Shown piece by piece: positions 1,792-35,008 of a stretch of DNA of 64,000 nt (position 1 is its first letter; each line of letters starts with the position of its first letter). The stretch is from Longimicrobiales bacterium (GTDB lineage: Bacteria > Gemmatimonadota > Gemmatimonadetes > Longimicrobiales > Gaopeijiaceae): NCBI GenBank assembly GCA_965202985.1, contig CBDBCF010000001.1, positions 256,001 to 320,000 on the forward strand, in the 5' to 3' direction. Under the pieces are notes generated by a model that saw nothing but the letters and a program-made list of their open reading frames with translations, made no database searches and was not told where the DNA came from. The translations under genes were made by a program, and so were the position numbers.

Positions 1792-2083
1792 CGCGTGCCC
1801 TCTGCGCTGGGCCGCATGTCCACGACCTCCTTCGAGGGATGTCGGGGGCCGATGTCGATCAAGATGTGCACTGTCGTCTCCTTCGCCGTGGGGGCACTCG
1901 CGGGGCTGTTCACTTAAGTCGCCGGAGGCGCTCGGTCAACTGTCCGGTGAGAGGGCGGCACACGGACCAGTCGAATGCTGGCCGCACGCAGGTCTTTCAC
2001 TGACGGTCCGATTCAACCATCCACCCGATTGCGGTGTCGTGCTATCTTCCCGCCCACCTCTCGAGCCTCGGACGACACGACCA

Positions 2084-2788
2084 ATGCGCGCCTACTGCCT
2101 TGCCGACCTCTTCAACCTCCAGCTCTGGCCTAGCGGTCGGCATCCAAACCGCGCGGACATTCGCGACGGGATTGGGCAACTCGTGAACCGTGTCCTCACG
2201 GCCGTCCCTCGCGCCAACGAAGTGACCGCGCGACTCTACGGTGGATGGGACGGAGACGTTCCGGCGGCGCAACGCGACCTTCGATCCATGGTTGCTCGGT
2301 CGATTGACCACATGCCTCGACGACGGGGACGGCAGTCGTTTCGGATCGAGCTCGCCGAATCGCCGGTCTGGGATCCAACCGCCCGAATACGCAGGTCGGT
2401 CAGGCTATCCCATCCGAAACGGCTCAGGGTGGCCGTCGAATCGTCTGGCAACTGCCTCCTCGGCAGCGCACGCTGCACGCTCCATCCCTTCGCATCGTGG
2501 TGCAAGGGCCGGTGCCCAGCGACAGGATGTCCGGTCCGGCTGTCGGATGTTGCATCTCGACATACCCAGAAGATGGTCGACACCCTGCTGACTGCGGACG
2601 CCATGGCCATCCGCTACGAGAAGCTGGCGGACACCGTGGTGCTGGCCAGCGACGACGACGACATGGTTCCCGCGCTATTGGCCCTTGTGGCGTCGGAGGT
2701 TGAGCTGGTATACTTGACCAAGCGGGAATCGAAGGGCCCATACACCACCTTGCTGGAACGAAAGGGGGCGCGAGTCTGCGCATGGTAG
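2084..2788 (+). CDS. NYN (LabA/PIN-like) nuclease with Cys-rich insert
   Basis: ATG 2084 in frame with ORF 1772..2788; early Asp (LADLFN), RLYGGW, QKMVDTLL and VLASDDDDMVPAL match NYN acidic motifs; Cys cluster CLLGSARC...WCKGRCPATGC. Confidence 0.75.
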   Translation: MRAYCLADLFNLQLWPSGRHPNRADIRDGIGQLVNRVLTAVPRANEVTARLYGGWDGDVPAAQRDLRSMVARSIDHMPRRRGRQSFRIELAESPVWDPTARIRRSVRLSHPKRLRVAVESSGNCLLGSARCTLHPFASWCKGRCPATGCPVRLSDVASRHTQKMVDTLLTADAMAIRYEKLADTVVLASDDDDMVPALLALVASEVELVYLTKRESKGPYTTLLERKGARVCAW

Positions 2789-2791
2789 ACA

Positions 2792-5101
2792 ATGGACACG
2801 ACTGAAATCAAGAAGGACATTAGGCGATTCGCCGACCCCGGGTCGGACGTCCTGACGGACGGGAGTACGTTGATCTGGGAGCGAGACGGGCGTACTCGCG
2901 AAGCGAATCTGAGGCAGTCGGACGATGGCAGCCTTCCGGATGTGTGCGTTGGCGGTGCCTGGATGAAGTATAGGGATTTTCTGGCGGGTCCGGAGATGGC
3001 CGATTTGTATCGCCTTGCGCAGTTTGTTGTCAAGACGGCCCATGATCGGCCTGAGTATGTCCGAACTCTAGCACGAGCCGGCGACACCGACGACCAGGCC
3101 GAGAATCAAGAGCATGGCGACGCCGACGCTGTGGAAGTGGTCGAATCCCGAAGCACCAGGAATCTGCCATATTTGGCTACTCGCGTCGTGTTGGTCCAGG
3201 GCGAGGCGGGATCGGGCAAGACGATGGTCCTTCGGCACATGACGCTGCAACGAGCCAAGCAATTTATGGACGGTAGCGTGAAGTCGCTGTTCTTCTACGT
3301 GGACGTCCAGGGTCGCTCGTTGTCGCGACTCGACGATGCAATGGCCAGAGAACTGCAGGATCTTCGGGCTAGGTTCACATACAGTGCGGTTACACCGCTC
3401 GTACGGTCGGGGCTCTTGGTGCCGGTCATTGATGGCTTTGATGAGCTTCTTGGTAGCGGAGGATACGATGAAGCCTTTTCGTCATTGGCCGCATTCGTGG
3501 CAACACTGGAGCAGCGAGGCGCAGTCGTCGCCTCCGCACGCTCATCGTTCTTTGATTACAACAATTTTAGGGAGTACGCTACGCGGTTTGGATGGGACGG
3601 CCGACTTGGTTACCGTGTGGATCCCGTACGTGTACAGCCCTGGCGCGACACGCAAGCCGACGAATACGTTGAAACGGTCGCTGCAGAAGTAGGTACCCGG
3701 AAGTGCAAGACAGTACTTTCGGAGTTTCAACGATTGCGAGGCAGTCTGGACGATTCCAACCGCCGTGTCCTATCAAAACCGTTTTACGTTTCGCGGGTCG
3801 CCGAACTACTATTGATAGAGGGTGTTGATCTGTTCTCCGACACGAGTTTGCTGGACCGGCTTGTGGAGGCTCTTGTAAGTCGTGAGCACAAGAAGCTCTT
3901 GAACAAAGACGGCACACCCCTGATGAGCCAAGATCAGCATCGCTTGTTTCTAGCGGAGCTGGCCATGGAAATGTGGTGGCAAGAAAGTCGAATCCTGGAT
4001 TTTGAGACCGTACAGGAGCTAGCCGCACTCTTGGCCGAAGACTACGACTTGCCACCGGACGCAGCCAAGGCAATTAGGAGTCGCGTATCTAGCTACGCCT
4101 TTCTCACTACAGCCGACACGGACCGAAAGACTCTTCGTTTCGAGCACGAAGTCTTCTACAGCTACTTCCTGGCAAGCAAGATCGGCCAGTGCCTAGAACA
4201 GGAGCCGGACGACCTTCGGCGCTTTCTCAACCGATCGGTTCTTGACGACATAGTGACAGAGGAGGTTGCGAGAAACGCGGCAACCAACGGTAGAGGTTAC
4301 GCCGCTACGATCGAGTCGGTATGCGCAGCTGTCCGACAGGGTTTCATGGACGTCGTCGGCAGAGAGAACGGTGGCCGTCTGGTCGCGAGACTCATCGCGG
4401 ACAGCGGTAAGCTGCGACCTGTCGGTACGTTGCGCGATCTTGTCTTCCGTCACGAACGGTTGGGACCCGCCAACCTGGACAAACCACACTTCTTCCGCTG
4501 CGAGTTTCACGAGGTGGACTTCACTAGGATTCGGATGCAGTCCCCTAGATTTGAAGGCTGTACACTGCGGTTGCCTGTCGTAAGTATCGGGCAGACGAAA
4601 TTCCATGGCGCGCGGGCTAGCTTGGGAGAGCAAGTTCAAGGGATTCGAGTTGGGACTGGCGATGAAGAATTCCCAAAAGGGGATTACTTTGCGCCAGGAG
4701 ACGTACATGGCATCTTGAGCAAGCTAGGGATGGAATCCACCTCGGAGTCGAAGCCGACCCGATATACGTCTGCCCAGCAGCACAGAATTCGTCTTCTAAA
4801 TCGCTTTCTTCACAAGATGGATCGGCGGTTCTACGTTTCAGAAGCTGACCTAGGCAGATTCTCAACCACGCGTGATCTGGATTGGCAGAACATTCACGAG
4901 CTGTTGAAGGAACACCGTCTACTGATCGAACAATCCGTGCAGAAGGCCGGTCACAACGACAAGTTGCTTCGGCTGTCTCATCCGCCTGACGTTATTCGCG
5001 CGGGCGAGGACACTCGAGACAAAAGTCGACCGGAACTATCGGCGTTTTGGCACAACCTTTTGAACTTGGATTCAGCCAGAGAGAATGCGCCCCAACAGTG
5101 A
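2792..5101 (+). CDS. NACHT/STAND-like NTPase with C-terminal pentapeptide-like repeats
   Basis: Walker A GEAGSGKT, Walker B VIDGFDEL, SARSS, KPFY, FEHEVFYSYF (NACHT wHTH-like); F..C.F..VDF.....PRFEGC repeats; starts 3 nt after the NYN stop. Confidence 0.85.
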   Translation: MDTTEIKKDIRRFADPGSDVLTDGSTLIWERDGRTREANLRQSDDGSLPDVCVGGAWMKYRDFLAGPEMADLYRLAQFVVKTAHDRPEYVRTLARAGDTDDQAENQEHGDADAVEVVESRSTRNLPYLATRVVLVQGEAGSGKTMVLRHMTLQRAKQFMDGSVKSLFFYVDVQGRSLSRLDDAMARELQDLRARFTYSAVTPLVRSGLLVPVIDGFDELLGSGGYDEAFSSLAAFVATLEQRGAVVASARSSFFDYNNFREYATRFGWDGRLGYRVDPVRVQPWRDTQADEYVETVAAEVGTRKCKTVLSEFQRLRGSLDDSNRRVLSKPFYVSRVAELLLIEGVDLFSDTSLLDRLVEALVSREHKKLLNKDGTPLMSQDQHRLFLAELAMEMWWQESRILDFETVQELAALLAEDYDLPPDAAKAIRSRVSSYAFLTTADTDRKTLRFEHEVFYSYFLASKIGQCLEQEPDDLRRFLNRSVLDDIVTEEVARNAATNGRGYAATIESVCAAVRQGFMDVVGRENGGRLVARLIADSGKLRPVGTLRDLVFRHERLGPANLDKPHFFRCEFHEVDFTRIRMQSPRFEGCTLRLPVVSIGQTKFHGARASLGEQVQGIRVGTGDEEFPKGDYFAPGDVHGILSKLGMESTSESKPTRYTSAQQHRIRLLNRFLHKMDRRFYVSEADLGRFSTTRDLDWQNIHELLKEHRLLIEQSVQKAGHNDKLLRLSHPPDVIRAGEDTRDKSRPELSAFWHNLLNLDSARENAPQQ

Positions 5102-5331: not shown

Positions 5332-5874
5332 ATGGAATCCCTTGCCGACCGGATCGAGCGCAGCGCCCAGAAAGCCGCGTCGCTCCGCCATCGACTCGTG
5401 CTCGTCGCGGGTCCGCCCGGCTCGGGCAAGACGACGGCCCTGCGGACGCTCCGCGACCGCACCGGCGCGCCCCTCGTGAACGTCGGCCTGGAGTTGTCCC
5501 GCCGAATGCTGGAGCTCACGGAACGACAGCGCGCGCTCCGCTTGGCCGGGCTGCTGGGCGAGATCGTGGACGAAGCCCACACGAAGTGCGTTGAAGCGGC
5601 GTCGGTGTCGGCATCCAGCCGCATGGTACTGCTGGACAACATCGAGATCGCCTTCGACCCGGCGTTCCAGCAGGACCCACTCAAACTGCTCCAAGGGCCG
5701 GCGCGCCACCAGGTGGTCGTGGCGGCGTGGCCGGGGCCGGTGGCCGAGGGGCGGCTGGCGTATGCGGCTTCCGGTCATCCGGAGCACCGCAGCTACCCGA
5801 TGGCGGACTTGGCCGACGATGCGATCGTAGTGGACGCCCAAGGACGCGACGCCCGCCAGGAGCGCCCCCGATGA
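5332..5874 (+). CDS. brxF: BREX-3 P-loop protein BrxF
   Basis: [45 protein letters not shown] overlap with the next gene. Confidence 0.9.
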
Positions 5875-8800
5875 AGTACCGCGACCTGATCCGCTTCGAT
5901 CCCATCGAATCCGTCGTGCAGCTTCGCAACGCGGCGAAGGCGGACGAGGCGCGGAAGCTGGTGGAGTCCTACGTCGTGTCCGACGAGATGGCGGAGAAGC
6001 TGTCGGCGGTGGTGATCCCCCAGCTTCAGTACGACGCTGCCGCCGACAACCGGGGCGTTCTGGTAGTGGGCAACTACGGCACGGGCAAGTCCCACCTGAT
6101 GTCGGTGCTGGCCGGGGTCGCCGAGCACGCGGAGTTGGCCGAGCGCCTTACGCATCCGAAGCTGGCCTTGGCCGCCAAGGCCGTCGCGGGCCGCTTCAAG
6201 GTGATCCGGGTGGAGATCGGGGCGTCGCAGATGCCCCTGCGCGACATCCTGGCGAACGCGCTGGAGGAAGAAACGGCCGCCATGGGCATCCACTACGCCT
6301 TCCCCCCCGCCGACGAAGTGCGCAGCAACAAGCACTGCTTCGAGGAGATGATGGCGGCGTTCCACGGCGTCTTCCCCGATCACGGCCTCTTGCTGGTGGT
6401 GGACGAGCTTCTGGACTACCTGCGGTCGCGGAAGGACCAGGAGCTGGTGTACGACCTGAACTTCATGCGCGAAGTGGGCGAAGTGTGCCGCGACCTGCGC
6501 TTCCGCTTCATGGCCGGCGTGCAGGAAACGATCTTCGGCGCTCCCTCGCTTGCATTCGCGGCCCAGGCGCTTCGGCGGGTCAAGGACCGCTTCGAACAAG
6601 TGCTCATCGCCAAGAGCGACGTGAAGTTCGTGGTGGCGGAGCGCCTGCTGAAGAAGACGGCCGACCAGAAGGCCAAGATACGCGAACACTTGGCACCCTT
6701 CGCCAAGTTCTACGAGCGCATGAACGAGGGCATGGACGAGTACGTCCACCTCTTCCCGGTGCACCCCGCCTACATCGACGCCTTCGACCAAGTGGCGCAG
6801 GCCGAGAAGCGGGAGATCATCAAGACGCTCTCCCGAGCAATGCACAAGATGCTCGACGAAGAGCTGCCGGCGGACCACCCGGGACTCGTCACCTACGACA
6901 GCTATTGGAACACGCTGCGCGACAACCCCGCGTTCCGCGCCGTGCCAGACATCCGCGCCGTCGTTCAGTGCAGCGAAGTGCTGGAGGCGCGGATCCGGCA
7001 GGCGTACACGCGGCCCCAGTACATGGAGATGGCGCTGCGGATCATCTACGCGCTCTCGGTCCACAGGCTCACGACCGGCGACATACACTCGAACCTGGGC
7101 GCCACGGCAAAGGAGTTGCGGGACGCCCTGTGCCTCCACCAACCCGGCGTCGAGGATTTGGGGGGCGACCCGGCCGACGACCTCCTGACCCAGGTCGAAG
7201 CCGTCATGCACGAGATATACAAGACGGTGAGCGGCCAGTTCGTGTCCTCGAACCCCGACAACGGCCAGTACTACCTGGACCTGAAGAAGACCGACGACTA
7301 CGACGCCTTGATCGAGGCGCGCGCCGAGACGTTGGACGACTCCAAGCTGGACCGCTACTACTACGACGCGCTCCGCCGGATCATGGAGTGCACCGACCAA
7401 ACCTACGTCACCGGCTACCAGATTTGGGAACACGAACTGGTCTGGCCGGACCGGAAGGCGTCCAGGCGGGGCTACTTGTTCTTCGGGGCGCCCAACGAGC
7501 GTTCCACCGCCGTGCCTCCGAGGGACTTCTACCTGTACTTCATCCAGCCCTACGAGCCGCCCAGGTTCAAGGACGAGCAGAAGCCCGACGAGGTGTTCGT
7601 GCGACTGAACCGCCGCGACCAGACCTTCGACGAGGCGTTGACAAGCTACGCCGCAGCGGCGGACTTGGCGCTGACGTCGTCGGGACACGCCAAGAAGACC
7701 TACCAAGAGAAGGCGGACGGCTTCCTGCGCGAGATCGTGAATTGGCTTCGCGAGAACATGATCGACGCCTTCCAGGGCACGTACAGGGGCCGCGCTCGAA
7801 GGCTCGTCGAGTGGAGCAAGGAGAAGTCGGTGCGCGAGGTCGCGGGCCTTCGCCCCGACGAAGTGGTCGACTTTCGCGGGTTCGTCAACGCGGTGGCGGG
7901 CCTGTGCCTTTCGCCTCACTTTGCGGACCAAGCGCCTGGGTATCCCCGCTTCTCGGTGGTGGTGACGGACCAGAGCCGGGAGCAGGCGGCCCGAGACGCC
8001 CTGCAGGTCGTGGCCGGCAAGCGCCCGACCGCCCAGGCCACCGCCGTGCTGGACGCGCTGGGGCTTTTGGACGGCGACCGCATCGACCCCTCCGGCTCGC
8101 CCTACGCCGGACACGTGCTGGAGCTGCTGGAGCGGAAGGGGCACGGGCAGGTCGTGAACCGGGGCGAGATCGTCGAGGTCGATCGCGGCGTGGAGTACAT
8201 GGACAAGAACGGCCAGCGGCTGGAGCCCGAGTGGGTGGTGGTCGTGCTGGCGGCGCTTGTGCACTCCGGTCACGTGGTGCTGGCAGTGCCGGGGGCGGTG
8301 TTCGACGCGGTCGGCCTTCCCGAGATGGCGAAGCGCCCTATCAGGGAGCTGGTCGACTTCAAGCACTACAAGGCGCCAAAGGAGTGGAACCTGCCGGCGC
8401 TGACCGCCTTGTGCGAGCTGGTCGGCTTGCAGCCCGGCGCGGCCCGGCTGGCGACCCAGGGCCAGCAGGCGGCGGTCCAGCAGCTGCAGGAGAAGCTGAC
8501 GGAGGTGGTGCAGCGGCTGGCCAAGGGCGGGCACTTGGTTCAGGAGGGGCTTCCGTTCTGGGGCGCTCCCCTGCTGACGGACGACGAATCCCAGCGGCTC
8601 CGCGAAGGCATGAAGAGGACCAAGGCGTTCCTGGAATCCCTTCAAGCCTACACGACGCCCGGCAAGCTGAAGAACTTCCGCCACTCCGTCGACGAGGTGG
8701 AGTCCCACGGCGCGGGCATGGCGTGCTTGGAGGAGGTAGACGCGCTGAACGCGCTACGGACCAGCTTGGACCCGCTGGCGTCCTACTTGACGGCCGCGCT

Positions 8801-9605
8801 GGCGGGACTGCCGTCGGAGCACGAGTGGGCCGTTCGGACGGGGATCGTCCGGCGGGACGTGCTGGCCCGGTTCGCCGACCCCAAGATGCGTCGTTCCGCC
8901 GAGTTTCGTCGCAAAGCCGACCGAGACCTGCGCGACCTCAAGGGCGAGTACGTGCGCATCTACTTGGCGGCCCACGCCAAGCACCGCCTGGGAGGGGCCG
9001 GCGAGGAGCAGAGGCGGCGCCTTCTGGCGAGCGCCCGGCTGAAGGGGTTGGCCAAGTTGTGCGCAATCGACATCCTGCCCAAGCGGCAGCTGGACGACTA
9101 CCGGGAGCGGCTGAAGGGGCTGGCCTCGTGCACGGCTCTCATGGAGTCCGAACTGCGCGTCGCGCCGGTGTGCGGCCACTGCGGCTTCCGCCTGGGCGTC
9201 GAGGACTCGGAACCGTCGGCGCAGTCCGCGCTGGACGCTCTCGACCAGGAGGCGGACCGGATGCTGGCGCGTTGGGCCGACACCCTGTTGGAGAACCTGG
9301 CCGACCCCACCGCCCAGGAGAGCTTGAAGCTGCTGGAGCCGGCGGCCAAGGCGCTCGTGGACCGGTTCGTGGCGAGCGGTCGGCTGGCGCAGGACCCGAA
9401 GCAGGAGCTGATCGACGCCCTGGCCGAGGCGCTCGCGGGGCTCGAGAAGGTGTCGGTGAGGCCGGCCGAGCTTTGCGCCGCTCTGGCTCCCGACGGTGCG
9501 CCCTCGACGCCGTCCGACATGGTGAAGCGGCTGGCCGGCTGGTTGGAGGAGCAGGTCGGGGGGAGGGACCCGGGCAAGGTCAGGATCGTGCTGGAGGACG
9601 AATGA
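5871..9605 (+). CDS. brxC: BREX-3 ATPase BrxC (DUF6079 family)
   Basis: Start [18 protein letters not shown]; Walker [20 protein letters not shown]-terminal CGHC; lies between brxF and the methyltransferase. Confidence 0.9.
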
Positions 9606-9742
9606 CGCGGGACGGGGTGGACGGCGGGTCGTACCCCCGCGGAATGGGGTTGGTCACTGACCAAGCTGCCGTGCCCAAAGGGGGGTTGGTCACTGCTGGA
9701 GTGACCAACTTGACGGGACGCCGCAATTTGATTATACATTAA
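9602..9742 (+). pseudogene. 46-aa remnant of the AlbA/ATP-binding gene, carrying the 71-bp repeat
   Basis: ATGA-coupled to brxC; encodes GLVTDQAAVPKGGLVTAGVTNLT, nearly identical to a segment of 15328..16878. Confidence 0.55.
9646..9716 (+). repeat. 71-bp direct repeat, copy 1 (palindromic operator plus -35 box)
   Basis: 69/71 identical to 16581..16651; contains TTGGTCA-C-TGACCAA and GTTGGTCACT-N5-AGTGACCAAC; followed by TTGACG-N17-TATACA. Confidence 0.85.
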
Positions 9743-9767
9743 GAATGGTTTGCCCCGTACCCACCCC

Positions 9768-12570
9768 ATGACCAACTCGCCGAGCAAGCTCTTTGAGCGG
9801 AAGGCGACCCCGACGACCGACCAGGTCGAATGCTTGGGCCTGACCTTCGAGTCCGACGACGCCCGGCGCGAGCACTTCCTGCAGCGGCTGCGCGAGAAGC
9901 TCCCCGAGCTGCGCAAGCGTCCCGACTTCCCCAAGGGGGAGGACGAGAACATCCTGCGCATGTCGGACCCGCCCTACTACACGGCCTGTCCGAACCCGTT
10001 CCTGGCCGAGTTCGTCGAGCACTGCGGCACGCCCTACGACCGCGCCGAGGAGTACCATCGCGAGCCGTTCGCCGTGGACGTGAGCGTGGGCAAGACCGAT
10101 CCCCTCTACCGGGCGCACGGCTATCACACCAAGGTCCCCCACCTGGCGATCGTCCCGTCGATCCTGCACTACACCGAGCCCGGCGACATCGTGCTGGACG
10201 GCTTCTGCGGCTCGGGAATGACCGGCGTGGCCGCCCAGTGGTGCGGCGCGGCCCCGGAGGAGTACCGTCGGACACTCGAGAAGGAATGGAAGGACCAAGG
10301 CCGGGAGCCGCCCAAGTGGGGTGCGCGGCGGGCCGTTCTGGGCGACCTGTCGCCCGCGGCCACCTTCATCGCCGCCAACTACAACATCCCCTTCGACGTG
10401 GACGAGTTCGCCGAAGCAGCCAAACAACTGCTGGACGATGTGGAGAAGGACATCGGCTGGATGTACGAGACGCTCCACGCCGACGGGCAGACCAAGGGCC
10501 GGATCAACTACACGGTGTGGAGCGAGGTGTTCTCGTGCCCGGACTGCGGCGGGGAGGTGGTGTTCGGCAAGGAGGCCGTGGACGCCCGGACCAAGAAGGT
10601 GAAGAAGGAATTTCCGTGCCCGGGTTGTGGAGCGGTGCTGACGAAGATACGGCTCGTGCGAAGCTCTTCCGCCCGGTGGGATCAAGCCCTTGAACGGAGC
10701 GTCGACGAACCCAAGCGAGTGCCCGTCCTGATCAACTATCAAATCGGCAACGACAGGCACGAAAAGGATCCAGACAGCGCCGACCTTCAACTTCTCGAGC
10801 GAATCGCAACCATGGAGCCCCTCGAAGGCGTGCCGTTGGACCGCATGATGCACGTCTCCGACGGCGTGACGAAGTGGGGCGACAAGTGGCGAGCCCGATC
10901 TGCCTCGTTTCAGCACGTGCACCACCTGTTCTTGCCCCGAGCCGCGCGTACTTCTGGCTGCTTGTGGGGCTTGGTTCGCCAACAGGACGACCGGCGGTCG
11001 CGCAACATGCTCATGTTCTTGGCCGAGCAGGCGATCCTCGGCATGTCCATCTTGAATCGGTACCAGCCGATCCAGCACGGACGCCCCGGCGGCTCCCAGG
11101 TGAACCGCGCGATGTCCGGGGTGTACTACGTCAGCTCCCAGATCTCGGAATGCTCTCTACGCTACAACCTAGCGGGACGCACTGGTCGATTGCCCAAGGC
11201 GTTCACGCCCATGCCTTCGCGTCCCGGCTATGCCGCCGTATCGGCCGTGGACTGCGGACGCATCCCAATCCCAACCGATTCCGTCGACTACGTCTTCACT
11301 GACCCACCCTTTGGCGACAGCTTGGCCTACGGCGAACTCAACTTCGTCGTCGAGGCGTTCCACGGCGTTTTCACGAACCAAGCCCCGGAAGCGATCGTCA
11401 GCCCGACGCAGCGCAAGCAGCTGGACGAATACCAAGTGCTCATGCGACGCTGCTTCGGCGAATACGCCCGGGTCCTCAAGCCGGGGCGGTGGATGACCGT
11501 CGTGTTCCACAACTCCCAGAACTCGGTGTGGAACGCTATTCAGGAGGGCCTGTCCGCCGCCGGCTTGGTCGTGGCCGACGTGCGCACGCTGGACAAGAAG
11601 GTCGGCTCATACAACCAAGCCGTTGCCAGCGGCGCCGTGAAGCAGGACCTGGTCATCTCGTGCTACAAGCCGTCCCGCGACCTGGAGGCACGCTTCAAGC
11701 TGACGGCCGGAAGCGAGGACGGCGTCTGGGATTTCGTCCACAATCACCTCAGGAACCTGCCGGTGTTCGTGGCCAAGGGGGACGTGGCGGAGATCGTGGC
11801 CGAGCGCCTCGACTACCTCCTCTTCGACCGAATGGTGGCGTTCCATGTCCAGCGAGGCGTGATAATCCCCTTATCGGCCGCCGAGTTCTACGAAGGCCTG
11901 AAGCAGCGTTTCGCGGCCCGCAACGGCATGTACTTCCTCCCGGAGCAAGCCGTCGAGCACGACCGCAAGCGCCTCACGGTCCGGCGCATCGAGCAGCTGG
12001 CCCTCCTCGTGACCGACGAGAAGTCCGGCCATCGAGTGGCTGCGCCTCCAACTGAAGGCCCGTCCCCGGAGCTTCCAGGCGATCCATCCCGCCTTCGTCC
12101 GCGAACTCGGCGGCTGGCAGAGGCACGAGCAGCTTCTGGAGCTGTCCACCCTCCTGGAGCAGAACTTCCTCTGCTACGACGGCGAGGGCGAGGTCCCCTG
12201 CCAGATTCACGGCTACCTGTCCAGCAACTACAAGGACACCCGGAACCTGCCCAAGGACGACTCCACCCTGCGGAAGCGCGCCCGCGACCGCTGGTACGTG
12301 CCGGACGTCAACAAGGCCACCGACCTGGAGCGCCTCCGGGAGCGCACGCTCCTCCGGGAGTTCCAGACCTACCGGGAACCGTCGCGACGGCGCCTGACGA
12401 AGTTCCGTCTGGAGGCCGTCCGCGCCGGCTTCCGTCGCGCCTGGGGAAAGGGCGACTACGACACGATCCTCGACATCGCCCGCAAGGTCCCCGATAAGGT
12501 GCTGCGGGAGGACCTCCAGCTGCTGATGTGGTACGACCAGGCGAAGAGGCGGAAGGAGGCGGAGGGGTGA
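9768..12570 (+). pseudogene. pglXI: BREX-3 DNA methyltransferase PglXI, copy 1, +1 frameshift at about 12027
   Basis: AHGYHTKVP, DGFCGSGMTG, CPDC/CPGC, TDPPF; reads AAGTCCGGCCATC versus AAGTCCGCCATC in copy 2 (extra G); C-terminus continues in the 12298..12570 frame. May be an assembly error. Confidence 0.85.
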
Positions 12571-12609
12571 GAGAGGAGGTCCATCTAAGGTCAGGCAGGC
12601 CGCTAGCCG

Positions 12610-13250
12610 GAACGCGTGCCGAAACGGAACTCGCCGCCCGCCCGTCCTGCTACGGCACTCCTACCGCGACGGTGGCAAGGTGCGCAAGCCAGCGTTGGCG
12701 AACCTTCGCGCTGGCCCGACGAACTGGTCGAGGGGTTGCGCGTCCTGCTCAAGGGCGGGGCCGCGGTTCCGGCACTCAAGGACGCCTTCCGCATCGAACG
12801 CTGGCGGCCGCATGGCCACGTCGCGGCCGTCGTGGGCACGGCACAGAAGCTGGGCTTCAAGCGGCGCGCCAAGCGTCACGAGCTACTGGCCGACACGGCG
12901 GCGCAACTGGAGCAGGTCGCCCGAGAGCCGTGCGCCGCAAGCGGCGACCGCTACGGAGCGAGGCTCGGATCGCCGTGCGGGTCGACCGAGTACTACGCTT
13001 GCCCAAGGTGGGCAAGCACTTCGACGTGCGTGCGACGGCTGACTCGTTCTCGTATGCCCGCAACGAAGCCCGGATCGCCCGGGAAGCAGCACTGGACGGC
13101 GTGTATGTGCTGGGCACCAGCGTGGCGAAGCAGAAGCTCGGCGCCGACCACGCGGTGCGCGCCACAAGGGCCTGGAACGGATTAAGCGAGCATTCCGCGC
13201 TTCAAGACGGTGGACCCCAACTTCCATCGGCGACTGACGCCAAGGCCTTC
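12610..13250 (+). mobile_element. Degraded IS1634-family transposase remnant
   Basis: Fragments RNSPPA, LANL.RWPDELVEGLRVLLKGG, PHGHVAAV.GT, KVGKHF, IAREAALDGVYV..TSV spread over several frames with an internal deletion. Confidence 0.75.
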
Positions 13251-13501
13251 GAAAGGGTGACGGACGACTCCTTCCACACATTTCCACGCCGCCGAACTCG
13301 CCCCGGGCCGGGGCCACCACGGTTGCGGCCTTTGATGTGGGCCGTGTCGAGTTCAAGCCGACCTGCACAAACGCCCTGGCCGAGTTGCCGCGAGGACGCC
13401 CGATGAGCCACGTCGTGATCGACGACCGCCTGATCGAACAAATCTGCGGCCCAACGCCGCCAACTGCTCCCCGGGGAGCACAACCGCGAGGAGAATGAAG
13501 G

Positions 13502-14467
13502 ATGAAGCGTACCCGTGAACTCAGACCCCTCGCAGTCCGCCGCCGCCTCGAACGACAAATCAGACTTGCCAACAATGAAGAGGTTCCGTTGGATCAAACA
13601 TTAGAGGTGGCAGGACCAGTGGCTCTCGCTACCTTGGAGGCGCTTCATGTGACAAGGTATTGGCGGAACAGAACCATTCCCCGCCTGGCAGAAGGCAAGG
13701 GTCGTGTGGCAACTATCATTCAGGGTACAGCGATAGGCTCAAAAGGTTTTATTATGGAAAATCTCCCAACGATGACTCCCCTTGACACACCACTAGCAAC
13801 TGAGCCATTTGGTCCAGGCCTGACGCTCTGCTTGGATAGTCGCTCGCTCATCAGACCAAGGGTTGGCGAACGCACAACCCTAAAACGTTGGCGTAAAACC
13901 AAGGTATGCGACATCTTGTTCGTCTCTGAGGAGATGAATGCATATTCTCTAAAAATGTCAACCGATAATCGCGTGACGCTCACCATACAAAATTTGCAAC
14001 ATGCCATGAAGCTACCCGGATTGGTGACAATTGCAAGAGCCGTCACCTACGAAGACGTTCTAAGAGGGGTGCGCAATGCTCACGCCCACTTCATCCCAAC
14101 TAGAACATCAATCAAAAAAGCAACACCTTCAGAGATAGTCGGCTTCTTGGTCCAACACGGCCCCTGGCCAGTCCGAATCTGGATCAGCAACCTTGCATGG
14201 AGCTTAGGAGTGGCGATCGGCAATGGGATGGATATGCCGCAACTCAAGTTCAACAGTGGACGCCTGACACCCTGTGGAGGTGATGTTGAAAACGAGATAC
14301 CCGCTGGCCTGTATCTTGTTGGTGGTTGTTTAGAAAACATCGCCGTCACCGTCGCGTTGCCAGATGGTCGCGCTTTTGCTGGCCACTTGCCGACTTCCAA
14401 ACTAAGAACTGGCCGCTATTGCATCAACATCAATCAACCCGATGCAAATCCGGGAAGGCTGTCATAA
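13502..14467 (+). CDS. Hypothetical protein with HEPN-like RxxxxH motif
   Basis: 321 aa, lower GC than host; VTYEDVLRGVRNAHAH; GAAGG upstream of the ATG. Confidence 0.6.
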   Translation: MKRTRELRPLAVRRRLERQIRLANNEEVPLDQTLEVAGPVALATLEALHVTRYWRNRTIPRLAEGKGRVATIIQGTAIGSKGFIMENLPTMTPLDTPLATEPFGPGLTLCLDSRSLIRPRVGERTTLKRWRKTKVCDILFVSEEMNAYSLKMSTDNRVTLTIQNLQHAMKLPGLVTIARAVTYEDVLRGVRNAHAHFIPTRTSIKKATPSEIVGFLVQHGPWPVRIWISNLAWSLGVAIGNGMDMPQLKFNSGRLTPCGGDVENEIPAGLYLVGGCLENIAVTVALPDGRAFAGHLPTSKLRTGRYCININQPDANPGRLS

Positions 14468-14549
14468 GTCGGCCCGAGGCGGCACCGTTGCTCAAGCGCA
14501 ACCCGGAGTTGCGAGCGGTGGCGGTGTTCAAGGAGTTGTGGAGGCTACA

Positions 14550-15295
14550 TCTGGAGTGCGAACCTCGGGTGCCGACGCGCAGGCGAAACGCCTGGGACGC
14601 TCTGCTCGGCGCGGCACCCAACGCCCTGCCAGACCCGGACGCGCGCTGCGGCAACTGGCTACGCTTCGCCCGCACATGGGCGGGGTGCTCGCCCCATCCC
14701 CGGAACGCGAGACCGCCGATGCGACCGAGCCGAATCTTGCCGCACTCCGCGACCGCGTCGACGCCGCCTTCGCCGAGTGGCTGGGGCGTCGCTATGCGGG
14801 CTTGGCGAGCCTGCCGCCGCCCCCGCCGGTCATGTTGCACCATGTGCCGCACGTACTTGCGCACCATTTGGACCGGGCGGGGCCTGAGTGCCGCCCCCGC
14901 CGTCTACCAGAAGAATCTGGGCACGGGTTCGTTCGACCTGATCTCTCGTCCGCGAGTGCGGGCTGCCCGGCTGGTCGTGGCCGTGCTCCTCGACATGCTC
15001 CTGGCTCGCCTCCAACCACGGGCAATGTCGAAGCGACAGGTTGTGGCCGTCCAGCCGCCAGAGGAGTCGTCGGCCTTCGAGACAAGTGCGTCCACGTCTG
15101 CCCCAACGCGACGCTACGCCTGCGAGCGGCCGCCGAGTTTGCAGACACCCGTCCGTGGCCACCGTCGGGCCTGCCCCAGGACTACCTGCCCCTGCTGGCC
15201 CCCGAACGTTCCGCGTTCGTTCGCAAGGGGAAGCGCGTGGTCGCCCATGGCGGCGCTGCGTGGAGGAGGTCGTCGTGCCGCTGGTCGGCATCCCC
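14550..15295 (+). pseudogene. pglZ: Decayed copy of the 3' part of pglZ
   Basis: Nucleotide similarity to about 30780..31910 (EPNLAALRDRVDAAFAEWL, PPVMLHHVP, GLPQDYLPLLAP.RSAFVRKGKRVVAHGG) with indels and deletions. Confidence 0.85.
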
Positions 15296-15327
15296 GTAGG
15301 CTTGACTTGGCCCAATAGCTGAACACG

Positions 15328-16878
15328 TTGCGGCAACCTCGAAAGTTCAGCGTCGGCGTGGAGGTGCAGGAGGAGCTGCACCGGCTGGGCGACTTGGACT
15401 TGCTGGTCTTCTACATCCCGGAGGTGTCCCGCTCGCAGAAGCCCGTCTATCTCAACAACGACATCCGTCGCGCGTTCGTGAGGAGCGGAGGCAGCGACGT
15501 TCGGTGCTCCGCCAGCGAGCGCAACCGCTTTCTTGTCGATGCCGCTTCCGAGCGCTACGACAGCCAGTTGGTGGAGATCGACCCGGCCAAGGCGTTCGAC
15601 GAAGAAAGCCTGCGCTGGTACCGAGCCGTCTACGAGGCGAGGCTGGGGAACCGATCCCACAAAGAAGCGTCCGACCTGGACTTCTTGGCCGAGATGGGGC
15701 TGCTCGTGGAACGGGGCGAACGCCGATTGCCGACGCGCGCGGTGGTGCTCCTCTTTGGAACGAACCCGGCGCTCCGGCAGCATCTGCCGCGTCCGGTGGT
15801 GGATTGTCAGCGCTACTCGACAGACCGCGCCGCCGCCTATACGGGCAAACGCTGGTTCGACCGCTTGGTGCTGGAAGACAACTTGGTGCGCACTTGGCGC
15901 ACGTTGATCGAGGAATGGTACGAGAAGTTCGCCGAGCATCCGTTCCGCTTGGACCCGCAGACCATGCAACGGGACGACACGCCGCCCGACTACCTGGCGT
16001 TCCGGGAGTCGATGGTCAACCTGATCGTCCACCAGGACTACGCCGACCCCTCCCGCAAGGCGCTGATCCGCCGCTACGCCGACCAGACCGTGTTCTGGAA
16101 CCCGGGCGACGCCTTCGCTCAGGACGCCGACCTGTTCGAGCCCGGCGAGAAGGAGGTCCGCAACCCCCGAATCGTGTTCGCGTTCCGTCACATCGGGCTT
16201 GGCGAGAACGCCGGTTGGGGCCTGCGCGACGTCTTCCGAAACTGGCAGCAGCTGGGCAACGTCCCGCCCCGCATCGACAACGACAAGCGCCGCAAGAGCT
16301 TCGAGATCGTCCTAGAGAAGGAGAAGCTGATGTCCGGGCCGCGGCAGGCGTTGCGGCAGGCGCTCGGGGCGACCTTGACGGAGCCGCAGGCTCGCGTGTT
16401 CGCCTTCGCGTCGCGGGAGGCCGAGGTCACGCTGTCCCAGATCGGGCTCGTGGCGGGGGTGTCGAGCGAAGAGGCCGTGCGGCTGGCGCGGCACTTGGTC
16501 ACGCAGGTGCTCTTTCGCCGGATAGGACAGGGCCGGTACACGCTGGCCCGGCATGTCCGAGACCGACCGCCCAGCGAAGCGGGGTTGGTCACTGACCAAG
16601 CTGCCGCGCCCAAAGGGGGGTTGGTCACTGCCGGAGTGACCAACTTGACGGAACATCAGAAAACGATTATGATTAACTGTGATGCGCCTCGTACCAGAGC
16701 GGAGCTGATGGAGCGCACCGGCTTGAACCACCGCGCGTTCTTCCGGCGCAAGCACCTGGACCCGCTGGTTCGCGCCGGCCTGATTCGCATGACCCGGCCC
16801 GAAGAACCCACACACCCCGACCAAGCCTACGTGGTGACCGAATCCGGCCTTGCCTTCTTGAGTGAATCGAAGAAGTGA
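15328..16878 (+). CDS. AlbA/Schlafen-like plus HATPase_c_4 ATP-binding protein with C-terminal Fic-type HTH; probably 5'-truncated
   Basis: KPVY...FVRSGGSD (AlbA C-terminal half), FRESMVNLIVHQDY, WNPG, RNPRI, ENAGWG, LDPLV..GLI.MT.PE.PTHP.Q.Y; AlbA N-terminal half replaced by the pglZ remnant. Confidence 0.75.
   Translation: MRQPRKFSVGVEVQEELHRLGDLDLLVFYIPEVSRSQKPVYLNNDIRRAFVRSGGSDVRCSASERNRFLVDAASERYDSQLVEIDPAKAFDEESLRWYRAVYEARLGNRSHKEASDLDFLAEMGLLVERGERRLPTRAVVLLFGTNPALRQHLPRPVVDCQRYSTDRAAAYTGKRWFDRLVLEDNLVRTWRTLIEEWYEKFAEHPFRLDPQTMQRDDTPPDYLAFRESMVNLIVHQDYADPSRKALIRRYADQTVFWNPGDAFAQDADLFEPGEKEVRNPRIVFAFRHIGLGENAGWGLRDVFRNWQQLGNVPPRIDNDKRRKSFEIVLEKEKLMSGPRQALRQALGATLTEPQARVFAFASREAEVTLSQIGLVAGVSSEEAVRLARHLVTQVLFRRIGQGRYTLARHVRDRPPSEAGLVTDQAAAPKGGLVTAGVTNLTEHQKTIMINCDAPRTRAELMERTGLNHRAFFRRKHLDPLVRAGLIRMTRPEEPTHPDQAYVVTESGLAFLSESKK
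16581..16651 (+). repeat. 71-bp direct repeat, copy 2, inside the ATP-binding gene
   Basis: Same two palindromes as 9646..9716. Confidence 0.85.
16645..16673 (+). promoter_or_regulatory. Near-consensus sigma70 promoter TTGACG-N17-TATGAT upstream of pglXI copy 2
   Basis: -35 at 16645-16650 and -10 at 16668-16673, read directly; abuts the 10-bp-arm palindrome. Confidence 0.55.
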
Positions 16879-19661
16879 CCGACTCGCCGAGCAGGCTCTT
16901 CGAGCGGAAGGCGGCCCCGACGACGGCCCAAGTCGAGTGCCTGGGCATGCCCTTCGAGTCCGACAACGCCCGGCGCGAGCACTTCCTGCAGCGACTGCGC
17001 GAGAAGCTCCCCGAGCTGCGCAAGCGTCCTGACTTCCCAAGGGGGGAGGACGAGAACATCCTGCGCATGTCCGACCCGCCGTACTACACGGCCTGCCCGA
17101 ACCCGTTCCTGGCCGAGTTCGTCGAGCACTACGGGACGCCCTACGACCCCGCCGAGGAGTACCACCGCGAGCCGTTCGCCGTGGACGTGAGCGTGGGCAA
17201 GACCGACCCGCTCTACCGGGCGCACGGCTACCACACCAAGGTCCCCCACCTGGCGATCGTCCCGTCGATCCTGCACTACACCGAGCCCGGCGACATCGTG
17301 CTGGACGGCTTCTGCGGCTCGGGGATGACCGGTGTGGCCGCCCAGTGGTGCGGCGCGGCCCCGGAGGAGTACCGCCGCAAGCTCGAGAAGGAATGGAAGG
17401 ACCAAGGCCGGGAGCCGCCCAAGTGGGGCGCGCGGCGGGCCGTCTTGGGCGATCTGTCCCCCGCGGCCACCTTCATCACCGCCAACTACAACATCCCCTT
17501 CGACGTGGACGAGTTCGCCGAGGCGGCCAAACAGCTGCTGGAAGACGTCGAGAAGGAAGTCGGCTGGATGTACGAGACGCTTCACACCGACGGAAAGACC
17601 AATGGCCGGATCAACTACACGGTGTGGAGCGAGGTGTTCTCGTGTCCGGACTGCGGCGGGGAGGTGGTGTTCGGGCGGGAGGCCGTGGACGCCCGGACCA
17701 AGAAGGTGAAAAAGCAATTTCCGTGCCCGGAGTGCGGAGCGGTGCTGACGAAGATACGGCTCGTGCGAAGCTCTTCCGCCCGGTGGGATCGAGCCCTTGA
17801 ACGGAGCGTCGACGAACCCAAGCGAGTGCCGGTCCTGATCAACTATCAGATCGGCAACGACAGGCACGAAAAGGAGCCGGACAGTGCCGATCTTCAACTT
17901 CTCGAGCGAATCGCAGCTATGGAGCCCCTCCAAGGCGTGCCCTTGGACCACATGATGCACGTCTCCGACGGCGTGACGAAGTGGGGCGACAAGTGGCGGG
18001 CCGGGTCGGCCTCGTTTCAGCACGTGCACCACCTGTTCCTGCCTCGGGCCGCGCGAACTCTGGCTTGCCTGTGGGGCTTGGTTCGCCAGCAGGACGACCT
18101 GCGGTTACGCAACATGCTCATGTTCTTGGCCGAGCAGGCGATCCTCGGCATGTCCATCTTGAATCGGTACGGTCCAACCCACTACTCCCAGGTGAACCGT
18201 GCGATGTCCGGGGTGTACTACGTCAGCTCCCAGATCTCGGAATGCTCCCTCCGCTACAACCTAACGGGACGCACCGGCCGATTGCCCAAGGCGTTCACGC
18301 CCATGCCTTCGCGTCGTGGCCATGCTGTCGTGTCGGCCGTGGACTGCGGACGCATCCCAGTTCCAAGGGACTCCGTCGACTACATCTTCACCGACCCGCC
18401 CTTCGGCGACAGCTTGGCCTACGGCGAACTCAACTTCGTCGTCGAGGCGTTCCACGGCGTTTTCACGAACCAAGCCCCGGAAGCGATCGTCAGCCCGACG
18501 CAGCGCAAGCAGCTGGACGAATACCAAGTGCTCATGCGGCGCTGCTTCGGCGAATACGCCAGGGTCCTCAAGCCGGGGCGGTGGATGACCGTCGTGTTCC
18601 ACAACTCCCAGAACTCGGTTTGGAACGCCATTCAGGAGGGCCTGTCCGCCGCCGGCTTGGTCGTGGCCGACGTGCGCACGCTGGACAAGAAGGTCGGCTC
18701 CTACAACCAAGCCGTTGCCAGCGGCGCCGTGAAGCAGGACCTGGTCATATCGTGCTACAAGCCGTCCCGCGACCTGGAGGCGCGCTTCAAGCTGACGGCC
18801 GGAAGCGAGGACGGCGTCTGGGAGTTCGTCCACAATCACCTCAGAAACCTGCCGGTGTTCGTGGCCAAAGGGGACGTGGCGGAGATCGTCGCCGAGCGCC
18901 TCGACTACCTCCTCTTCGACCGAATGGTGGCGTTCCATGTCCAGCGAGGCGTGATCATCCCCCTCTCGGCCGCCGAGTTCTACGAAGGCCTGAAGCAGCG
19001 GTTCGCGGCCCGCAACGGCATGTACTTCCTCCCCGAGCAAGCCGTCGAGCACGACCGCAAGCGGCTCACGGTCCGGCGCATCGAGCAGCTGGCCCTCCTC
19101 GTGACCGACGAGAAGTCCGCCATCGAGTGGCTGCGCCTCCAACTGAAGGCCCGTCCCCGGAGCTTCCAGGCGATCCACCCCGATTTCGTCCGCGAGCTCG
19201 GCGGCTGGCAGAGGCACGAGCAGCTTCTGGAGCTGTCCACCCTCCTGGAGCAGAACTTCCTCTGCTACGACGGCGAGGGCGAGGTCCCCTGCCAGATTCA
19301 CGGCTACCTGTCCAGCAACTACAAGGACACCCGGAACCTGCCCAAGGACGACTCCACCCTGCGGAAGCGCGCCCGCGACCGCTGGTACGTGCCGGACGTC
19401 AACAAGGCCACCGACCTGGAGCGCCTCCGGGAGCGCACGCTCCTCCGGGAGTTCCAGACCTACCGGGAACCGTCGCGACGGCGCCTGACGAAGTTCCGTC
19501 TGGAGGCCGTCCGCGCCGGCTTCCGTCGCGCCTGGGGGAAGGGCGACTACGACACGATCCTCGATATCGCCCGGAAGGTCCCCGACAAGGTGCTGCGGGA
19601 GGACCTCCAGCTGCTGATGTGGTACGACCAGGCGAAGAGGCGGAAAGAGGCGGAAGGGTGA
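16875..19661 (+). CDS. pglXI: BREX-3 DNA methyltransferase PglXI, copy 2 (intact)
   Basis: 928 aa; DGFCGSGMTG, Zn-ribbon CPDC/CPEC, TDPPF, WYVPD.NKA.DLE.LRE; GTGA overlap with the upstream gene. Confidence 0.92.
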   Translation: MTDSPSRLFERKAAPTTAQVECLGMPFESDNARREHFLQRLREKLPELRKRPDFPRGEDENILRMSDPPYYTACPNPFLAEFVEHYGTPYDPAEEYHREPFAVDVSVGKTDPLYRAHGYHTKVPHLAIVPSILHYTEPGDIVLDGFCGSGMTGVAAQWCGAAPEEYRRKLEKEWKDQGREPPKWGARRAVLGDLSPAATFITANYNIPFDVDEFAEAAKQLLEDVEKEVGWMYETLHTDGKTNGRINYTVWSEVFSCPDCGGEVVFGREAVDARTKKVKKQFPCPECGAVLTKIRLVRSSSARWDRALERSVDEPKRVPVLINYQIGNDRHEKEPDSADLQLLERIAAMEPLQGVPLDHMMHVSDGVTKWGDKWRAGSASFQHVHHLFLPRAARTLACLWGLVRQQDDLRLRNMLMFLAEQAILGMSILNRYGPTHYSQVNRAMSGVYYVSSQISECSLRYNLTGRTGRLPKAFTPMPSRRGHAVVSAVDCGRIPVPRDSVDYIFTDPPFGDSLAYGELNFVVEAFHGVFTNQAPEAIVSPTQRKQLDEYQVLMRRCFGEYARVLKPGRWMTVVFHNSQNSVWNAIQEGLSAAGLVVADVRTLDKKVGSYNQAVASGAVKQDLVISCYKPSRDLEARFKLTAGSEDGVWEFVHNHLRNLPVFVAKGDVAEIVAERLDYLLFDRMVAFHVQRGVIIPLSAAEFYEGLKQRFAARNGMYFLPEQAVEHDRKRLTVRRIEQLALLVTDEKSAIEWLRLQLKARPRSFQAIHPDFVRELGGWQRHEQLLELSTLLEQNFLCYDGEGEVPCQIHGYLSSNYKDTRNLPKDDSTLRKRARDRWYVPDVNKATDLERLRERTLLREFQTYREPSRRRLTKFRLEAVRAGFRRAWGKGDYDTILDIARKVPDKVLREDLQLLMWYDQAKRRKEAEG

Positions 19662-20042
19662 GCGAGGGGGTCGGAGGCGAAGCTGACCAGTCGGGGAGTG
19701 ACGGGCACGATTGTGGACGACGCCGAAGAGTCGGCGACCGTTTTCCATCCCAGATGCTCTGCCCTCCTTTGGCTACGAAGCCCGCCGGTACCATGACAGG
19801 TCGGACCTGCGAAACCATGGCACGGTTCAGCGGGACCTTTCGCGCCGTCGTCAGGAATGCAACGGAGGAACGGACTCCGTCCGCCCTGCTACACTGGGGA
19901 GGCCTGGGCGGGTGTCATGCCCTTGGCCGTGTCACGGTCACGTACGTGCACTCTGCTGCTTCCAATCCAAGGACAAGAGGAGGCTCCATGTCATTCACCT
20001 TCCCGCCGCTGGCGAGACCTTGGTCCGCACCTACCCCTACAG

Positions 20043-33104: not shown

Positions 33105-33551
33105 ATGAACACTTTAGTTCGAATCGTCTATGATACCAACGTGCTGGTGTCCGCGCTCGTTGTGTCGGCCGACAAATGGGCTTGGCATCGGCAGCTCTGG
33201 CAGAGCGGCCGAGTCATCCCACTCGCAAGTCAACAGACGACGGATGAGTTTGTACGGGTACTGTCATACAAGAAGTTCGCCCTGGAGCCTGCGGATAAGC
33301 GGGAACTTCTGGCGGCGTATTCGGTGTACTCGGAGGCCATTGAAGTGTCGAATGCGCCCGCTACACCCAGTGTTCGCGATGATTCTGACCGACCGTTCCT
33401 TGAGCTTGCCCTCGTCGGACGGGCCGACGCTCTAGTGACCGGCGACCGCGATCTTCTGGAAGTCGCCCCAACGTTCTCCGTGCCTATCCTTACGCCTCGA
33501 CAGTTCGCGAATGGCTTCGAGAACGAGGAGGGTAGGTCGGCTCGGCTCTAG
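33105..33551 (+). CDS. PIN-family toxin (PIN_3/TIGR00305-like)
   Basis: RIVYDTNVLVSAL, E..RVLSY.KF, RDDSDRPFLELA..GRADALVTGDRDLL; AGGAGA RBS. Confidence 0.9.
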   Translation: MNTLVRIVYDTNVLVSALVVSADKWAWHRQLWQSGRVIPLASQQTTDEFVRVLSYKKFALEPADKRELLAAYSVYSEAIEVSNAPATPSVRDDSDRPFLELALVGRADALVTGDRDLLEVAPTFSVPILTPRQFANGFENEEGRSARL

Positions 33552-34592: not shown

Positions 34593-35006
34593 TTGATCGA
34601 CTCCACGCTGCCGCAGAACATCGAGAGTCCGGAGAAGGCCGTTGCTTCGGGTACCGGTCCTGCGAGGGTTCTGCGCAAGATACTGAGAACTTGGCGGTTG
34701 GACGGTCAGGACGAAGCGATGGCGGCCTTGCTCGGACTGGATGAATCCGACAATGCCCTCGCGCTCGACTTACTGGCCGGGCGTGGCGAGCTGCGAGGGC
34801 GTGATGTAGAAGACCGACTTGTTTGTCTGTATCAGATCAGAAAGACGTTGCACTCGCTCCTTCGGGACGAGCAAGTAGAGAACGAGTGGCTCCGGGAGCG
34901 ACATCCTGGACTGGAGGGCAAGCGCCCAATGGACCTGATGCTGAAGGGGTCCATGGAGAACCTGCTGCTCGTTCGGGACTACGTGGAAGCGATCGCGGGC
35001 CTATAG
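34593..35006 (+). CDS. Xre/MbcA/ParS-type antitoxin-like protein (DUF2384)
   Basis: IL..W.L, LLG, DR...L..I...L..L, WLR.....L.GKRP.DLM..G....LL.VRDY; TTG start uncertain. Confidence 0.75.
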   Translation: MIDSTLPQNIESPEKAVASGTGPARVLRKILRTWRLDGQDEAMAALLGLDESDNALALDLLAGRGELRGRDVEDRLVCLYQIRKTLHSLLRDEQVENEWLRERHPGLEGKRPMDLMLKGSMENLLLVRDYVEAIAGL

Positions 35007-35008
35007 TC

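Follow-up and report, generated by a model that had tools for sequence, protein, structure and literature searches.

Organization of the locus

The 64,000-nt stretch of a Longimicrobiales genome analysed here (hereafter the window; positions 256,001 to 320,000 of contig CBDBCF010000001.1) carries two adjacent genes encoding a predicted NYN/PIN-fold ribonuclease and a NACHT protein (Table 1), which together make up an apparently undescribed, conserved two-gene NLR-like module. The original prediction, made from the letters alone, had placed the two genes 3 nt apart, at a lower GC content than the host and directly before brxF. Both open reading frames (ORFs) were recovered on the same strand with a 3-nt gap from the NYN stop to the NACHT start, and the Pfam scores for NYN (PF01936, 2.5e-8) and NACHT (PF05729, 1.5e-8) both exceeded the curated cut-off. 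The GC contents of the NYN gene (63.8%) and the NACHT gene (55.7%) were indeed lower than that of the genome (68.6%), and GC at third codon positions was 0.74 and 0.62, respectively, when compared with 0.85-0.91 in three neighbouring genes. The ATG at 2084 was supported as the NYN start by homologues beginning with MxAYCLAD, and an upstream GTG start at 1772 was therefore rejected. The ratios of nonsynonymous to synonymous substitution rates (dN/dS) against the homologous locus L001 were 0.17 for NYN and 0.10 for NACHT; this purifying selection on both indicated that they are real, constrained genes. Neither a sigma-70 promoter consensus nor a terminator consensus was found at the locus.

The pair is located at the left end of a low-GC stretch (approximately 2.0 to 41.6 kb, 63.0% GC, with flanks of approximately 69%) that contains BREX, methyltransferase, PIN, AAA_21 and NERD genes. 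The DUF3500 gene to the left of the pair has other neighbours in three same-genus genomes. The same-genus genome G401 shares the two-gene cassette, with its brxF match approximately 106 kb away, and two others (G402 and G403) possess brxF without the pair. The position directly before brxF was thus true in the window and not conserved elsewhere. As no Brx model matched any of the 293 neighbouring proteins of relatives (see below) either, the module was regarded as an independent mobile cassette; the BREX adjacency is incidental, and a role of the pair in BREX was ruled out. The spread of the module is patchy: it was detected in 6-7 of 401 genomes of the phylum and in one of three same-genus genomes. 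No match was obtained in plasmids, in phage genomes searched with NACHT, or in viral contigs searched with the NACHT alignment, and an RNA holder was likewise not listed.

Table 1. Features of the window (positions counted from its first letter)
Feature	Position	Strand	Remarks
NYN/PIN-fold predicted ribonuclease	2084..2788	+	234 aa; Pfam NYN PF01936
Cys4 insert of NYN	2405..2557	+	~50 aa, NYN residues 108-158; C124-x6-C131-x12-C144-x4-C149; clade-specific
NACHT protein	2792..5101	+	769 aa; Pfam NACHT PF05729
N-terminal domain of NACHT protein	2792..2977	+	residues ~1-62; helix + beta-meander; conserved DLxxFADP..W..YxxFL; AF2 pLDDT 88-96
NACHT/STAND module	2978..4411	+	residues ~63-540; Walker A GEAGSGKT (137-144), Walker B IDGFDE (213-218), then helical and winged-helix subdomains
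Pentapeptide-repeat beta-helix	4412..4666	+	residues ~541-625; ~10 repeats; candidate sensor
C-terminal alpha/beta domain	4757..5065	+	residues ~656-758; winged-helix-like element order by DSSP on model
Mobile two-gene cassette common to window and same-genus G401	2024..5065	+	79% DNA identity over that stretch only
brxF, type 3 BREX	5332..5874	+	230 nt past NACHT stop; PADLOC BrxF 8e-51, NCBIfam BREX_3_BrxF 2e-46; not part of module
321-aa ORF without family match	13502-14467		defence-island cargo
RecG-like/Fic-C HTH protein	15328-16878		defence-island cargo
NERD protein	20903-22924		defence-island cargo
ThiF protein	27432-28247		defence-island cargo
PIN_3 gene	33105-33551		defence-island cargo
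Xre/MbcA antitoxin-domain gene with AAA_21 ATPase	34593-36253		defence-island cargo
N6/N4 methyltransferase with unassigned neighbour	39268-40826		defence-island cargo

The NYN nuclease

The structural model of the window NYN (AF2, pLDDT 92.7) had a predicted PIN-like alpha/beta/alpha fold, as its two best VIA matches were the NYN domain of MARF1 (5yaa, Z 13.1, rmsd 3.0, 140 aligned) and VPA0982 (Z 11.7). A Foldseek search with the same model gave no match below E 0.001. The predicted active site consists of D8, D166, D172, D191 and D193. Among 59 full-length partner NYNs, the window included, D166, D191 and D193 were present in all, D8 and D172 in 58, and D190 in 42; the motifs RLYGGW (residues 50-55) and QK (162-163) were also conserved. 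The window NYN is a predicted RNA-cutting enzyme, and DNA is a further possible substrate since FEN-like nucleases followed in the VIA search at Z 9-10. At E 0.001 or better, the NYN family comprised 1,130 representatives (50% clustering), among which there may be generic NYN proteins. Some family NYN domains were located at the C-terminus of longer predicted proteins (P0242, 533 aa; others 320-360 aa), which are either real fusions or over-extended gene calls.

The protein had been predicted as a Zn-binding RNase with a five-cysteine insert. The insert exists, and the NYN fold and the acidic residues are intact, but only four of the cysteines were conserved: among 49 close homologues, C124, C144 and C149 were found in all 49 and C131 in 47, when compared to only 19 for C140, and the four were invariant in 112 diverse Zn-type sequences. 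This Cys4 motif is a probable Zn site. All four cysteines were present in 31 of the 59 partner NYNs, while the remaining 28 had a loop of 3-13 residues instead. Zn binding is therefore not core to the system, and the insert is a clade-specific accessory that probably tunes RNA binding or stability within one clade.

The NACHT protein

The window NACHT was also modelled (AF2, pLDDT 91.5, pTM 0.90). The top Foldseek match of the model was NLRC4 (4kxf, E 1.4e-14), and NLRP3 was matched by VIA (Z 14.8, rmsd 4.2, 370 aligned). Walker A and DGFDE were intact in all 81 rows of the NACHT alignment. With intact Walker A/B motifs, helical and winged-helix subdomains and the fold of NLRC4/NLRP3, the protein has the features of a NACHT-clade STAND NTPase.

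The alignments to NLRP3 and NLRC4 started only at residues 61-67 of the NACHT model. The preceding domain of approximately 60 residues had no consistent Pfam match among 70 members and no PDB profile match below E 0.89, and its best Atlas score of 0.84 is a lead only. As it sits where NLRs carry effector or adaptor domains, we consider it a candidate adaptor. No catalytic effector was recognisable in the NACHT chain by Pfam, PDB profiles or Atlas, and searches with the fold of the whole chain are a poor test of its N- and C-terminal domains. In line with the original prediction, these searches recognised no N-terminal effector, and the pentapeptide-like repeats that it named were present. In the single sequence the repeats scored weakly (Pfam E 0.054), but they were clear by profile, which matched MfpA (2e-11, residues ~540-600), Qnr (5e-10) and HalA (1.5e-8), and also clear in the model, where the beta-helix matched alr1298 (Z 9.9). 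DNA mimicry is a property of pentapeptide proteins, MfpA and Qnr among them. The repeat region was the least conserved of the protein, with a mean pairwise identity of 24% versus 52% in the nucleotide-binding domain. A C-terminal repeat region as in bNACHT/Avs receptors is accordingly present, and may serve as the sensor. The small C-terminal domain contains the conserved residues W698, G720, G738 and W753, and had neither a convincing Pfam or PDB match nor an Atlas assignment; its winged-helix-like character is suggested by the secondary structure of the model.

Linkage and co-inheritance of the two genes

The conservation of the pair was investigated from both sides. Searching from the NACHT side, in the best 80 of 146 confirmed genome loci, we detected a family NYN directly upstream of NACHT in 62 loci, and in 63 when the frameshifted copy in L044 was included. 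These 62 NYNs were 56 separate full-length ORFs, two ORFs in frame with NACHT, and four frameshifted or split copies. According to automated start calls, the spacing between the two genes was -11 to +15 nt in 52 of the 56 loci with a separate full-length NYN. Searching from the NYN side gave 32 metagenomic loci, several of them duplicates. Four were cut by contig ends, and NACHT lay directly downstream in 27 of the remaining 28; the sole locus without NACHT was a weak match. Among 401 genomes of the phylum of the window, seven had a full-length family NYN, of which six adjoined a full NACHT and one had remnants of both genes. In contrast, none of the 22 fetched loci with weak, C-terminal-only (generic) NYN matches had NACHT.

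The pairwise identities of NYN and NACHT were correlated (Spearman 0.73, 57 pairs), and the nearest neighbour was the same in 33 of 57. The trees of both proteins (FastTree, SH-like support; four short rows dropped from the NACHT tree) split Zn-type from short-type loci, even after removal of the insert. As the midpoint root was arbitrary, no order of events was deduced from the trees. The identity correlation and the matching trees show co-inheritance, not physical co-evolution. The neighbourhood conservation proposed as a check of the original prediction was thus found in both directions.

The paired loci spanned 14 phylum labels in the tree. The Saccharimonadota label is suspect because its NACHT was identical to a Myxococcota NACHT; the two metagenome-assembled genomes (MAGs) carry it on short contigs (L053 and L054), probably owing to mis-binning, or to a very recent transfer. 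A further locus (L035) contained two different NYN-NACHT pairs, 7388-10307 (+) and 12860-15918 (-), facing each other within 9 kb.

No third conserved gene was found across the 80 loci. A VapBC-type toxin-antitoxin (TA) pair was rejected, as there was no small DNA-binding antitoxin gene and the only conserved partner was a NACHT protein of 750-770 aa. The two natural fusions were also discarded as evidence: one (L052) is distinguished from close relatives by what looks like a shift of a single base immediately ahead of the usual overlap, and in the other (L051) NACHT was broken as well. When longer NYN proteins were searched for, none was obtained, a result of little evidential weight.

Genes surrounding the related loci

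For 77 loci, the two closest genes to either side of the pair or the solo NACHT were called with our own rough gene caller, and the resulting 293 proteins were searched with PADLOC at 1e-25. As a control, 63 genes were taken from nine stretches spaced evenly along the genome of the window. PADLOC matches were obtained for 44 of the 293 neighbours and for one of the 63 control genes, a roughly nine-fold enrichment (Fisher p 0.0015), where at least five of the 44 matches were promiscuous (kinase, sigma factor, ABC ATPase).

Comparison with known systems

The window pair and 32 diverse relatives matched no named system in PADLOC-DB 2.0 (no relative at 1e-5; best match of the window NACHT, 4e-4), and matches in NCBIfam 20.0 were partial and far under the cut-off (DS8, 20.5 of 790 bits; HalA, 39 of 250). 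A match to a named system, one of the outcomes that would have spoken against the original prediction, was thus absent from both collections. A literature search, with subscription papers mostly outside its scope, found no description of a NYN-NACHT pair, nor did a query combining 'NYN domain', 'NACHT domain' and 'operon' yield any paper. The comparisons below apply to the available parts of each cited source.

The bNACHT proteins of Kibby et al. (bioRxiv 10.1101/2022.07.19.500537) share the NACHT module with the NLRC4/NLRP3 fold. Their sensors include pentapeptide repeats, and the window C-terminus, consisting of repeats and a small distinct domain, fits their 'hybrid' sensor type. Most tested bNACHTs are single genes, rarely in operons, and their effectors are fused, those with RNase activity being Schlafen and HEPN, whereas the nuclease described here is a separate, strictly coupled gene. 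Neither NYN nor PIN occurs in the text of that preprint, its tables aside. The Avs/STAND receptors Avs1-21 of Lee et al. (bioRxiv 10.64898/2026.01.04.697583 = PMC13581612) likewise have a STAND switch, a variable C-terminal sensor and defence neighbourhoods. Their sensors are mainly TPR-like, WD40 or FGE, clustered from sensors of >=400 aa, whereas the window sensor is approximately 220 aa. The text of the preprint and seven supplementary files contained neither NYN nor pentapeptide, and three large supplements may list this clade.

The CARD-NLR gasdermin systems (Wein et al., PMC10312443) and LypABC (PMC13236601) resemble the predicted make-up of the module in their NLR-like ATPase, non-catalytic N-terminal domain and separately encoded effectors, and NLR-like proteins with separately encoded proteases provide a precedent for effectors in trans (PMC10312443). 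In those systems, operons of three or four genes encode CARD-bearing proteases as the effectors, whereas here two genes encode the system and the effector would be an RNase; a Death-fold match was not found. The PIN-based defences DS-3 and DS-5 share the PIN-fold nuclease with an acidic active site (PMC13092281). DS-5 is also a two-gene system, in which both genes are required and which is not a TA pair, but the partner is a DUF5830/AcrIF4-like protein and not NACHT (PMC13092281). The NYN/LabA-DUF88 and MARF1 family has the same nuclease fold and acidic active site, and the corresponding parts of the PIN classification paper describe no NACHT association and mention a zinc ribbon only for Mut7-C (PMC5499597).

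Proposed function and alternatives

With moderate confidence, we read the pair as an unnamed mobile two-gene NLR/STAND-type anti-phage module, in which NACHT would be the pattern-recognition switch and NYN a separate, trans-encoded RNase effector. A defence role, taking all defence readings together, is quite likely. This reading builds on the observations described above, namely the two folds, catalytic motifs that are intact, tightly coupled and co-inherited genes, and defence-enriched surroundings. What is known of NLR/Avs and PIN proteins supplies the proposed steps of sensing, oligomerisation, recruitment and RNA cleavage. The resting NACHT would be an inactive monomer, of which the variable C-terminus with the pentapeptide and winged-helix parts may sense a protein or nucleic acid of the phage. 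Upon nucleotide exchange NACHT would oligomerise, and its N-terminal domains, once clustered, or some other exposed surface would recruit or cluster the co-translated NYN and thereby turn the nuclease on. Cleavage of RNA (tRNA, rRNA or mRNA) by NYN would then abort the infection. The split NLR-like system of the original prediction, in which NACHT would activate the nuclease, finds partial support in the linkage in both directions, the matching trees, the intact motifs, the defence-enriched neighbours and the absence of a named system. It had to be revised in two respects, namely that Zn binding is not core and that NACHT is not strictly dependent on NYN.

The dependence between the two genes appeared asymmetric. 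An intact family NYN without NACHT was not seen, while NACHT occurred with a broken or deleted NYN (L044, L056, L066, and the deletion remnant in L027), and the NYN-first metagenomic loci contained 17 full-length NACHTs, 10 truncated at a contig end and no broken one. Such a pattern would be expected from a guard or TA-like defence, where a constitutively toxic NYN is restrained by the resting NACHT until a phage trigger or the loss of NACHT, and PIN domains are classic TA toxins (PMC5499597, PMC13092281). We nevertheless regard this mechanism as unlikely. The toxin-first gene order and a 769-aa partner with an NLR fold and strict Walker motifs suit a switch better than a simple antitoxin, and deletion of the DS-5 partner did not unleash PIN toxicity (PMC13092281). 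Moreover, the NACHT-first set favours NACHTs that are intact, and a frameshift in a MAG may stem from an error of assembly.

Several observations weigh against NYN as the effector of a defence switch, and the main one against a strictly NYN-dependent receptor is a clade of solo NACHTs. No NYN was present in 17 of the 80 NACHT loci, comprising 13 in one clade, mostly Solirubrobacterales, three inside the Zn clade, and a broken locus left out of the tree (L075). Of the three in the Zn clade, L027 has already been mentioned, L073 lost NYN together with the start of NACHT, and the third is L033. A family NYN was absent from all 10 searched genomes with NYN-less NACHTs (eight of them from the solo clade; completeness of the genomes not given), where the controls were positive in five of five. 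The solo NACHTs keep the Walker motifs and the N-terminal domain, and their dN/dS values were 0.11-0.14 in three pairs, a fourth being saturated. Because this clade persists without NYN, NACHT does not strictly need the NYN effector. The neighbour scan also adds points on this side: its control came from one genome and the related loci are not independent, and only 21 of the 60 scanned paired loci had a restriction-modification, DISARM, HmaC-model, HEC or Dsr1 neighbour, with many lying among metabolic genes.

The neighbours of the solo NACHTs varied and included Schlafen AlbA_2 (six loci), ThiF, GmrSD/HNH and DinB-like genes. Five of the Schlafen AlbA_2 genes, encoding predicted RNases, precede the solo NACHTs of close kin in divergent orientation (L062, L063, L064, L070 and L075), and the sixth, of an unrelated type (~28% identity), is on the same strand and overlaps the NACHT start (L071:6274-7971). 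An effector swap is possible, although such genes are common in defence islands. One Solirubrobacterales chromosome carries two divergent solo NACHT copies approximately 13-20 kb apart, near a TrwC relaxase gene (L031 and L064).

The persistence of 13 intact solo NACHTs under purifying selection, with no conserved substitute partner, would also be explained if NACHT were a self-sufficient single gene for defence or signalling, acting via its N-terminal domain, via the winged-helix tail or through a host factor, with NYN as a long-standing accessory or second effector. Most tested bNACHTs are indeed such single genes, as noted above. NYN with intact acidic residues has, however, been kept in two deep clades across the 14 phylum labels at the -11 to +15 nt spacing, and the NACHT chain contains no recognisable catalytic effector; we therefore judge this explanation quite improbable. 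Very improbable is a role outside defence, such as stress-triggered RNA turnover, control of a plasmid or gene-transfer agent (GTA), or an addiction module, because defence cargo typically shows what was observed here, namely patchy presence, insertion sites that change, low GC and a roughly nine-fold excess of defence neighbours, even though some two thirds of the paired loci had no PADLOC-matched neighbour, bacterial NYN proteins have been tied to RNA processing and circadian regulation (PMC5499597), and GTA release makes use of a co-opted CARD-NLR-like system (PMC13236601).

The anti-phage switch with a nuclease in trans thus remained the preferred reading. A more specific version is tentative: in a minimal inflammasome-like system, the pentapeptide helix, of DNA-mimic type, would read phage nucleic-acid-binding proteins, a new 60-residue adaptor fold would recruit a MARF1-type RNase, and in the solo clade other effectors, or those of the host, would have taken its place. 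If true, it would parallel animal antiviral pathways, which recruit NYN nucleases in trans (ZAP-KHNYN), as far as the available sources describe them. In most characterised bacterial NACHT/Avs receptors, the effector is part of the same chain. With NYN as a free protein, the two-gene arrangement would bring in an effector class and a sensor type (pentapeptide plus winged-helix-like tail) that are both new, and would be the simplest model for an NLR switch that engages its effector in trans. The module spans only 3 kb, and named isolates, for example Methylorubrum rhodinum DSM 2163 (L059), carry intact copies. Three forms occur naturally and can be compared, namely the Zn-insert NYN, the short NYN and the solo NACHT.

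Other features of the window

Further to the right in the low-GC stretch, the pglXI methyltransferase region of BREX-3 was duplicated (9769-12581 and 16876-19672, 94.5% identity over 2.8 kb). The first copy shifts frame near its 3' end, and the second copy is intact. A PglZ-domain ORF was located at about 31127-31642, approximately 11 kb from pglXI, and parts of 30782-31906 recurred at 14550-15292 with 85-87% identity. These observations suggest that the BREX-3 locus has been rearranged or partly duplicated.

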